From: Escherichia phage EF202P1
DNA length: 64,000 bases
Sequence record: OP172796.1
Reading direction: 5' to 3' (one strand)
Shown here: positions 20,280 through 21,310 of the stretch, one piece after another
Layout: the number at the start of each line of letters is the position of its first letter
Numbering within the stretch: position 1 is the first letter of the stretch
The notes under the pieces: model-generated
What the model saw: only the letters and a program-made list of their open reading frames with translations
Told to the model about the DNA's origin: nothing
Database searches by the model: none
Position numbers and translations under genes: made by a program

Positions 20280-20720
20280 TTAGAAAGGCTTTCTACGTTG
20301 CTTGTTAATATTAGCTTTCATAGCAGCTAAGTGGTTTTGCTGTTCAATCAGTCGTGAACGTTCTTGATGACTAAGTGCCATAGTGTTCACATTCTCAATC
20401 GCTTGAGTGGCTTGCTTTAAAGCACGACCAATCTTACCAGACATTTTGCGTTTTGCAATAGTTGCTTGATGCTTAGGTTCAACCACACGATAACCAACAC
20501 CCATTGAAGCAACCAGATAAATCTTCTCTTCTTTAAGAAGCTTCTCAATAAACTTCTCAAGTCGGTTTAGACGTGTAAGTGCATAAGCCTTCATTTCATC
20601 TTCGTACTTAACAATGTCACCTTGATAAGTTGGCTTCACAATACCTAAGAAGGTATCCATCTCAGAATGTGATACAGTGTCACCGTAACTAAACTTTGCT
20701 GCTAATGCTTTTGTATTCAT
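20280..20720 (-). CDS. hypothetical protein (isolated cassette gene 2)
   Basis: 146 aa, basic C-terminus; followed on minus strand by UUCG-loop terminator. Confidence 0.45.
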   Translation of the reverse strand: MNTKALAAKFSYGDTVSHSEMDTFLGIVKPTYQGDIVKYEDEMKAYALTRLNRLEKFIEKLLKEEKIYLVASMGVGYRVVEPKHQATIAKRKMSGKIGRALKQATQAIENVNTMALSHQERSRLIEQQNHLAAMKANINKQRRKPF

Positions 20721-20722
20721 AA

Positions 20723-21310
20723 TTAAACGTTACCTTCTGAAATAACTTCTACAGAAAAACGACCAAAGCGTGGACGCCAATCACCTACACCACAAAGGTT
20801 ACCAGCATTTTCCAGAACCATCAGAAGTTCCTCTTTGGTGATTTGCTCTTCATCGAACATCAAACCAAACTCTACAGACCAGTCACGGAAGATTGGACGG
20901 TAGCTCATAACTCGTGCTGTACCAATCTTAACAGACTTAGCATAGATAAAGTCTGGATTCTTAGCAAGTTCTTGTGGGTTTGCTGGACAGTTCTTGATAG
21001 TCATTGGGAAGACTACATCTGTCAGCATAATGGCTCGGTCAATCACCTTACCAAGTTTGTTGAGTTTTGCACCAGACTTGATACAAGCCTCAATCATCTC
21101 ACCGTTCATAACAAAACCTAACTGCTCATCGTAGTAACAAGAAGTTACCAGTTGGCTTTCTGCTAAGAGCGCATAGTCTTCGTCAGTCTTTTTACGTTTA
21201 CTGGACAGAGACTTGTGATATTTTGTCAGAGGATTTAATGGGTCTGACAGCGTATCAGCGTGGCTCAGGAAAGGACGAGTACCAGTGATTTTGATATTTA
21301 ACAGTTTCAT
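20723..21310 (-). CDS. hypothetical protein (isolated cassette gene 1)
   Basis: About 195 aa from internal ATG with GGAG RBS; flanked by long structured intergenic regions. Confidence 0.45.

Follow-up and report, generated by a model that had tools for sequence, protein, structure and literature searches.

The window considered here, that is, the whole stretch of DNA that was analysed, is 64,000 nucleotides (nt) from Escherichia phage EF202P1 (sequence record OP172796.1), a Felix O1-like (Ounavirinae) phage. Our subject is a locus on its minus strand, located between the DNA ligase gene and the genes for thymidylate synthase and dihydrofolate reductase (TS/DHFR), which an earlier annotation (the original prediction) had described as a pair of genes of unknown function insulated by repeats. 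We put at roughly 90% the probability that this locus belongs to the type II systems of the SUSP1 clade of VIPR (Viral Interference Programmable Repeat), with guides aimed at a satellite element of E. coli. VIPR is a newly reported form of RNA-guided DNA recognition whose code is discontinuous and whose effector is a minimal RAMP protein, and has been proposed to be older than CRISPR (bioRxiv 10.64898/2026.04.26.720920 /.720927).

Two intact genes lie at the centre of the locus. The first, vipr (20723..21310, minus strand; phrog_4652), encodes a RAMP-like RNA-binding effector of 195 amino acids (aa), and the second, vap1 (20280..20720, minus strand; phrog_5926), encodes a 146-aa VIPR accessory protein with a Lys/Arg-rich C-terminus. 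Only 2 nt separate the vipr stop codon from the vap1 ATG. The open reading frame (ORF) listed for vipr begins at a GTG and is slightly longer (20723..21325, 200 aa); the actual start is the ATG at 21310. A GGAG is located 9 nt upstream of it, and the solved SUSP1 protein begins with MKLLNIK. Neither ORF has arisen by chance, as both proteins are found at 93-100% identity in 117 Ounavirinae phage records and the structure of one has been solved.

The VIPR unit is larger than this gene pair, spanning 19796-21713 on the minus strand and taking in five genes for guide RNAs (vrRNAs). From the 5' end, the order is promoter, leader, vrRNA 1, leader, vrRNA 2, vipr, vap1, terminator, and then three further leader-vrRNA units. 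The repeats that flank the two genes, at 19843-20252 and 21365-21655, resolve on the minus strand into these five vrRNA units of 91-113 nt, each consisting of 11-15 pentamers (a GGY-like triplet followed by a variable NN dinucleotide) and then one of two conserved tails. This arrangement corresponds to the published hallmark of the vrRNA, an RNA of about 100 nt with 9-16 tandem YNNGG (GGY/NN) units (bioRxiv 10.64898/2026.04.26.720920 /.720927).

Upstream of vipr lie vrRNA 1 (21526..21618, minus strand), with 93 nt, 11 units, a guide at 21618-21564 and a type-1 tail from 21563, and vrRNA 2 (21387..21490, minus strand), with 104 nt, 14 units of which 13 are GGY, a guide at 21490-21421 and a type-2 tail (GGATGGTAGTAGCC...ATCTACC). 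The NN series of vrRNA 1 reads TT AA AT TC CC AA GA AT AT TT GT, and the position that it occupies is empty in SUSP1. The remaining three, also on the minus strand, are downstream of vap1: vrRNA 3 (20125..20215; 91 nt, 11 units, guide 20215-20161) ends in a variant of the type-1 tail with the loop AATCGGA and its partner TTCGATT, vrRNA 4 (19976..20088; 113 nt, 15 units, guide 20088-20014) carries a type-1 tail, and vrRNA 5 (19843..19941; 99 nt, 13 units, guide 19941-19877) carries a type-2 tail (GGATGGCAGTAGCC...ATCTGCC). In-phase GGY arrays occur nowhere else within the 64-kb window, and at the VIPR locus they occur on the minus strand only.

The code of these arrays emerges clearly when guides are compared among 19 loci, namely the window and 18 related IMG/VR loci, in each of which 3 to 5 vrRNAs were detected (57 vrRNAs in all). 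Over the 49 distinct guides, the five pentamer positions carry 1.08, 1.66, 1.20, 0.09 and 0.05 bits of information, spelling G, G, Y, N, N, with frequencies of 0.80 for the first G, 0.95 for the second G and 0.95 for T or C. The first G is thus the least conserved position of the triplet, which suggests that the working consensus in this clade is nearer to DGY. The guides turn over, 49 of the 57 being distinct while the coding block is 93-100% identical in nucleotides between loci, and none of the five guides of the window is found among the other 18 loci.

The tails are conserved in structure as well. The type-1 tail contains a stem (3-6/17-20) and a pseudoknot (9-15/28-34), in which 100% of the cells pair. 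Compensatory changes are seen at 3 of the 7 pseudoknot pairs, the covariation score is reached by none of 500 shuffles, and the controls in which the pairing was slid collapse. In the type-2 tail, pairing is apparent by eye (GGCAG/CUGCC versus GGUAG/CUACC). A search of Rfam with 19600-21800 returned no match at E up to 1.

Several control elements, again on the minus strand, frame the vrRNAs and the two genes. A sigma70-like promoter (21686..21713; TTGACA-16-TATACT, 11 of 12 matches) is located upstream of the first leader and vrRNA, its function being assigned from the sequence pattern, and the leader before vrRNA 1 forms a hairpin from the inverted repeat CATCACTTAAGAG...CTTAAGTGATG (21617..21655). 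This promoter and leader at the 5' end are kept in SUSP1 and also in relatives that have no vipr. A leader of one of two conserved types, either ...AAAAGGTCTTTAAACAGGGTCTTTTAAT or the hairpin CATCACTTAAGAGTCTTCTAAGAGGGTTTTTAAGTGATG, stands before every vrRNA, at 20216-20252, 20087-20126, 19942-19975, 21491-21525 and 21617-21655; both types share the core GTCTT...AGGGT(C/T)TTTTAA, and the copy at 20087-20126, before vrRNA 4, is a second example of the leader hairpin of vrRNA 1. The leaders may act in processing, as 5' handles or as promoters. After vap1 comes a hairpin resembling an intrinsic terminator, followed by a T run (20243..20268; 6-bp stem, UUCG loop), which is identical in SUSP1. The hairpin itself (AGCCTC-TTCG-GAGGCT, 20268-20253) begins 12 nt past the vap1 stop and is the sole terminator-like site within 19300-22000. 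The array is closed by a terminal hairpin with 19-nt arms that are 89% complementary, followed by a T run (19796..19842), and the loop of this hairpin holds the TTGACA of the next gene's promoter (promoter-like site at 19823-19795).

The evidence that identifies the system comes above all from the larger protein. A sequence search of the PDB matched Vipr to 36pp_D, "SUSP1 Vipr protein", with 192 of 195 residues identical (E = 8.7e-129). The residues that contact the GGY motif in the SUSP1 structure are H17, E71, M72, R138, C173, D177, W178 and R179 (bioRxiv 10.64898/2026.04.26.720920 /.720927), and all of these RNA-contact residues (H17, E71, M72, R138, C173, D177, W178, R179) are kept in the window protein. 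Considering this near-identity to a solved structure and the description given in the structure paper, the 195-aa protein is assigned as a Vipr with a predicted RAMP fold of RRM core, G-loop and thumb. Vap1 is likewise identical at 145 of 146 positions to SUSP1 YP_009199428, which occupies the same place next to vipr.

The original prediction thus had the layout right. The 195-aa and 146-aa ORFs, the Lys/Arg-rich end of the smaller product, the two repeat regions on either side and the terminator immediately behind the second gene are all there as it described them. Its remark that neither protein resembles anything recognisable is borne out in family databases, in that neither matches any entry of Pfam, NCBIfam or PADLOC, Cas families included, and PHROGs offers only two families of 'unknown function'; it fails at the PDB, where the match to 36pp_D names Vipr. 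The proposals built on that layout fare less well. The function is not unknown, since work on the nearly identical locus of SUSP1 has established that one as VIPR; the supposedly insulating repeats are five vrRNA genes, the partners of the 195-aa protein; and nothing was found in support of very high or specially timed expression.

Vap1 has no sequence relative in the PDB, whether searched as a single sequence or as a 59-sequence profile, and a word-indexed homologue search returned the phage cluster only. An exhaustive search retrieved 234 remote homologues of similar length, none of them with a Pfam family. An AlphaFold (AF2) model built on an alignment with 58 homologues has a mean predicted local distance difference test (pLDDT) score of 96.3 and shows, at the N-terminus, a small alpha/beta domain that includes a beta-hairpin and is followed by two long helices; the protein is predicted to bind DNA and is a candidate winged-helix-like protein. 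Downstream of distant vipr genes (Vipr 37-40% identical), a match to the vap1 profile follows directly in 5 of 6 loci.

What are the guides aimed at? A starting point is provided by a gene for a 265-aa Dit-like tail/baseplate protein in the window (6176-6973). Of 5426 complete E. coli genomes, 474 have a chromosomal match to it, labelled "phage baseplate protein", and most of these matches have 90-95% nucleotide identity and are limited to the first two thirds of the gene. We sampled 13 of these loci (L028-L040, out of at least 474), each scanned together with flanking chromosome of about 10 kb per side, and all 13 hold an element of about 10-11 kb. Its genes encode a large serine recombinase, a small resolvase, a tape-measure protein and the Dit-like baseplate protein, often together with a Dam-like methyltransferase and an HNH endonuclease. 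The element is inserted at one of three sites, namely between yciI and tonB, inside a DUF72 gene near yecD, or between ymdF and wrbA. Some copies are disrupted by insertion sequence elements (L030, L032). We infer that this chromosomal element is a satellite of the window phage.

The five NN strings were scanned against these loci with skip lengths of 0 to 3 bases, and 200-300 guides of shuffled unit order were run for each guide. Outlying matches appear under the one-base skip only; skips of 0, 2 and 3 give at most 77% NN. None of the shuffled guides reaches the observed score for any of the five guides, and all five best matches are inside the satellite, with none in the flanking chromosome scanned. 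The best of them belongs to vrRNA 1, which matches 22 of 22 NN bases (100%) at L029 6744-6776, inside a coding sequence for a 236-aa protein (6616-7326), where the bases that it skips are those at codon position 3. For vrRNA 3, the match is 20/22 (91%) at L028 6196-6228 and recurs in L034 and L037; it is located 30-62 nt upstream of the small resolvase gene and its first 9 units are perfect. The vrRNA 5 guide matches 23/26 (88%) at L031 5387-5425, and also in L034 and L035, within a coding sequence for a 128-aa protein, with 10 consecutive perfect units and the skipped bases at codon position 3. That of vrRNA 4 matches 26/30 (87%) at L040 11419-11463 in the coding sequence of the large serine recombinase, again skipping bases at codon position 3. 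Finally, vrRNA 2 matches 23/28 (82%) at L032 10583-10624, in the divergent 3' part of the Dit-like baseplate gene, and its units 2-11 are perfect in L031 at 10580-10621. The skipped base therefore falls on the wobble position (codon position 3) in 3 of the 4 coding targets.

The window holds no match at or above 80% NN to its own guides, the best being 77%, and the location of the vrRNA 2 site in the divergent part of the satellite baseplate gene would avoid self-targeting. These results agree with the published mapping, in which 18 of the 20 mapped targets of the SUSP1 clade belong to the same satellite, an element that shares tail genes with the phage (bioRxiv 10.64898/2026.04.26.720920 /.720927). 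The published sequence-level rules, namely the one-base skip, the wobble phasing, the satellite target and the lack of self-targets, are recovered here on new guides. Some satellites have been reported to carry GGY arrays of their own (bioRxiv 10.64898/2026.04.26.720920 /.720927); at a threshold of 7 of 10 units, an in-phase GGY array was found in none of the 13 satellites sampled here.

Every hallmark of VIPR that can be read from sequence is present at the window locus, and the molecular events can be sketched from the SUSP1 work, where the expressed vrRNAs co-purify with Vipr and transcription is silenced, and where Vap1 raised protection in the assays (bioRxiv 10.64898/2026.04.26.720920 /.720927). 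By analogy, we infer that expression, ribonucleoprotein formation and silencing also take place in the window phage. Vipr protomers would polymerise along each vrRNA of about 100 nt, one per pentamer, sequestering each GGY triplet and exposing the NN dinucleotides. The latter would pair with double-stranded DNA read as NN-x-NN-x, one base being skipped per unit, and the resulting R-loop triplex would block transcription while leaving the DNA uncut, with Vap1 presumably enhancing the silencing. The five guides of the window would in this way be directed at a chromosomal E. coli satellite of about 10-11 kb with tail genes related to those of the phage, at sites in the large serine recombinase gene, upstream of the small resolvase gene, in two genes without an assigned function and in the satellite-specific part of the baseplate gene. 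Most likely, the locus serves to silence a parasite of the window phage during infection.

Several observations weigh against this interpretation and deserve to be considered together. First, expression and binding in the window phage are carried over from SUSP1, and the Vap1 model gave no significant structural match. Second, vrRNAs 3-5 lie behind the terminator, and no sigma70-like promoter was found among them (19843-20268). How, then, could the downstream guides be transcribed? Candidate routes are read-through, a promoter of a kind that we did not recognise, or a hairpin that could act as a processing or stability element. Third, many pentamers are non-canonical: the triplets of vrRNA 1 are GGY in only 5 of 11 units, the variants being TGT, AGT, TGC and GCT. 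Fourth, the best vrRNA 2 target is marginal, at only 82% and with its skipped bases at codon position 1. Fifth, exact-pattern scans for the vrRNA 2 and vrRNA 4 targets found nothing in the GTDB representative genomes or in IMG/VR, collections that probably do not contain the satellite variants concerned. Sixth, the four SUSP1 guides, used as positive controls, reached at most 24/32 NN in the first 7 satellites; with 13 satellites sampled out of at least 474, the target of every guide cannot be expected to be recovered. The published study itself found targets for only 20 of 41 guides (bioRxiv 10.64898/2026.04.26.720920 /.720927).

Some of these observations could be taken as signs that the VIPR of the window phage is decaying or already inactive, the degenerate units of vrRNAs 1, 3 and 5 and the imperfect targets then reflecting lost function. 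Each of these three vrRNAs indeed has just 5-7 canonical GGY units, four of the five best targets are imperfect, and vipr and vap1 have been lost in relatives. However, both ORFs are intact with all key residues kept, and the most degenerate guide, that of vrRNA 1, is precisely the one with a perfect 22/22 target. The same TGT/AGT variants are present in functional SUSP1 vrRNAs, frequent internal degeneracy is noted in the original reports (bioRxiv 10.64898/2026.04.26.720920 /.720927), and imperfect matches are to be read against a sample of 13 satellites from at least 474. Decay is accordingly a reading that we regard as very improbable.

The weak vrRNA 2 match and the poor yield of the SUSP1 control guides in the satellites sampled raise a different issue: the VIPR might be real and its relevant targets elsewhere, in competing phages, in host genes, or in the phage's own genes as a means of temporal regulation. 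Other VIPR clades do target prophages or other VIPR loci (bioRxiv 10.64898/2026.04.26.720920 /.720927). While such precedents lend the idea some substance, it would have to accommodate the finding that all five best matches fall inside the satellite rather than in its flanks of about 10 kb and exceed every shuffle, the lack of any self-match at or above 80% in the window, and the 18 of 20 published targets of this clade that belong to the same satellite. On scans that covered the sampled satellites, these flanks and the window, we give it only a slim chance, and retain the satellite as the object of the window guides.

The locus is widespread among related phages. The segment 19750-21720 (1971 nt) matches 230 phage records, the best full-length match being 91.9% identical, and 115 of the 230 cover at least 80% of the locus DNA. 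Beyond the Ounavirinae, distant homologues of Vipr are encoded by Pseudomonas, Mycobacterium, Gordonia and Listonella phages. Two records of apparently unrelated phages also turned up: GU169904.1 (Staphylococcus phage SA1) encodes a Vipr 100% identical to that of the window, while in MG065664.1 (Campylobacter phage A132) a match at 98% covers 13% of the locus. Both are probably contaminated or chimeric entries and not evidence of host range. In every record inspected, the products of vipr and vap1 are called hypothetical proteins, and the vrRNAs are unannotated or at most labelled 'repeat_region', as is a vrRNA tail in Escherichia phage dune (L001 4258-4309); the AYO145A record annotates 'promoter' features in the stretch of the locus.

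The gene pair is cleanly missing from the locus in Salmonella phages Si3 and fBSPA4. These relatives keep the promoter, the leader hairpin and intact-looking vrRNAs, one in Si3 and two in fBSPA4, in the spacer that runs from the DNA ligase gene to its neighbour (Si3, L041 1502-1783; fBSPA4, L042 1502-2086; the window equivalent is 19751-21719). No homologue of Vipr or Vap1 is encoded anywhere in the complete Si3 genome; fBSPA4 was looked at around the locus. About 113 of the 230 records may be of this kind, carrying vrRNAs and no vipr. The two orphan guides of fBSPA4 still find sites in E. coli satellites, with NN matches of 81% and 86% that no shuffle equalled, and no such satellite match was found for the orphan guide of Si3. 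Phages with vrRNAs and no vipr are not mentioned in bioRxiv 10.64898/2026.04.26.720920 /.720927, and the observation may be new.

The orphan vrRNAs bear directly on an older way of seeing the locus, in which the repeats provide passive insulation, or belong to the replication block as repeats of an origin or iteron type, and the two genes make up a moron of unknown function that has nothing to do with them. The cassette does have its own promoter and terminator, is located between the DNA ligase and TS/DHFR genes, and about half of the relatives lack it. Where vipr and vap1 are absent, these repeats are still present, which means that insulating the genes is not what they are for. Moreover, the repeats keep strictly to a 5-nt GGY/NN phase, and do so on the coding strand alone; together with the pseudoknotted tails, the hypervariable NN positions and the satellite-specific matches, this rejects the insulator and the origin/iteron readings of the repeats alike, and the 195-aa protein corresponds to the solved vrRNA-binding Vipr. 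That repeats and genes should be unrelated is scarcely credible in light of these findings. The comparison among relatives does uphold one part of the original prediction, the suggestion of a moron-like acquired module: with its own promoter and terminator and with the full cassette in 115-117 of 230 records, about half of the related phages, the locus fits an acquired module or an interaction with defence, and "moron" is then a descriptive label only. The comparison also shows a conserved repeat architecture whose variable positions turn over, and no routine replication accessory protein came to light.

Could the orphan vrRNA genes be functional? They might be loaded in trans on Vipr supplied by a co-infecting phage or satellite, or they might serve as decoys that titrate the Vipr of a rival. 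We consider this rather unlikely, and offer it tentatively. If it is true, guide arrays would be exchangeable units that are partly independent of the effector gene, and the five guides and leaders of the window would form a recombining cassette, with the downstream array expressed apart from vipr and vap1 in spite of the terminator.

The window locus adds no new kind of system. It has already been described, in near-identical form, in phage SUSP1, and what the present analysis provides is an independent confirmation, from sequence only, of the published rules; the five window guides may lie outside the published analysis. The pattern of an "insulated cassette between repeats" was flagged from sequence alone, and it is worth making into an annotation rule, because 117 phage records carry these genes and all of the records inspected call them hypothetical proteins.

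Comparison with known systems begins with the type II VIPR of SUSP1 (NC_028808; PDB 36pp; bioRxiv 10.64898/2026.04.26.720920,.720927), which occupies the same site as the window locus, from the DNA ligase gene to a gene for a 127-aa protein. The two are 98.5% identical in Vipr and 99.3% in Vap1, and are alike in promoter, leaders, terminator, both tail types, GGY/NN guides and the satellite family targeted. They differ in that SUSP1 has four vrRNAs (1 upstream, 3 downstream) and the window five (2 upstream, 3 downstream), in that all five window guides differ from those of SUSP1 and of 17 other loci, and in that the window phage genome is Felixounavirus-like, whereas SUSP1 is a Suspvirus. More distantly, the VIPR of a Pseudomonas fulva prophage and other type II loci have, like the window, vipr and vap1 side by side and flanked by GGY arrays that are in phase. 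The proteins of these systems are distant, and their targets are regulators of resident prophages, not a satellite (bioRxiv 10.64898/2026.04.26.720920 /.720927). The same layout, vipr-vap1 with a GGY array on the same strand, is found in IMG/VR loci L023-L027, where Vipr is 37-40% identical. Such distant loci keep in-phase GGY arrays as well as a homologue of vap1, and genes and arrays thus stay associated across large evolutionary distances.

VIPR also invites comparison with class 1 CRISPR-Cas systems (the Cas7 filament of Cascade and type III). According to the literature, both rely on a RAMP-fold protein that polymerises on a guide RNA and whose thumb flips out bases periodically. Unlike class 1 CRISPR-Cas, VIPR has no nuclease and no need for a protospacer-adjacent motif, its outcome is silencing, and its guide is read discontinuously, with 2 of 5 RNA bases and 2 of 3 DNA bases used. 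Searches of Pfam, NCBIfam and PADLOC detected no sequence similarity of Vipr or Vap1 to Cas proteins. Membership of the window locus in CRISPR-Cas was considered and rejected: the locus has two ORFs only and no cas1 or cas2, and its repeats are phased 5-nt guides with tails instead of repeat-spacer units.

A functional parallel is Vibrio phage ICP1, a lytic phage which, as Seed et al. are said to have reported in 2013, uses an RNA-guided CRISPR-Cas system against PLE, a chromosomal satellite that parasitises it. The ICP1 system is reportedly a complete type I-F that degrades its target and acquires spacers. In both cases, a lytic phage carries guides against a chromosomal satellite. Where they part is that VIPR has no known acquisition machinery and relies on one small effector, which represses its target rather than cutting it.

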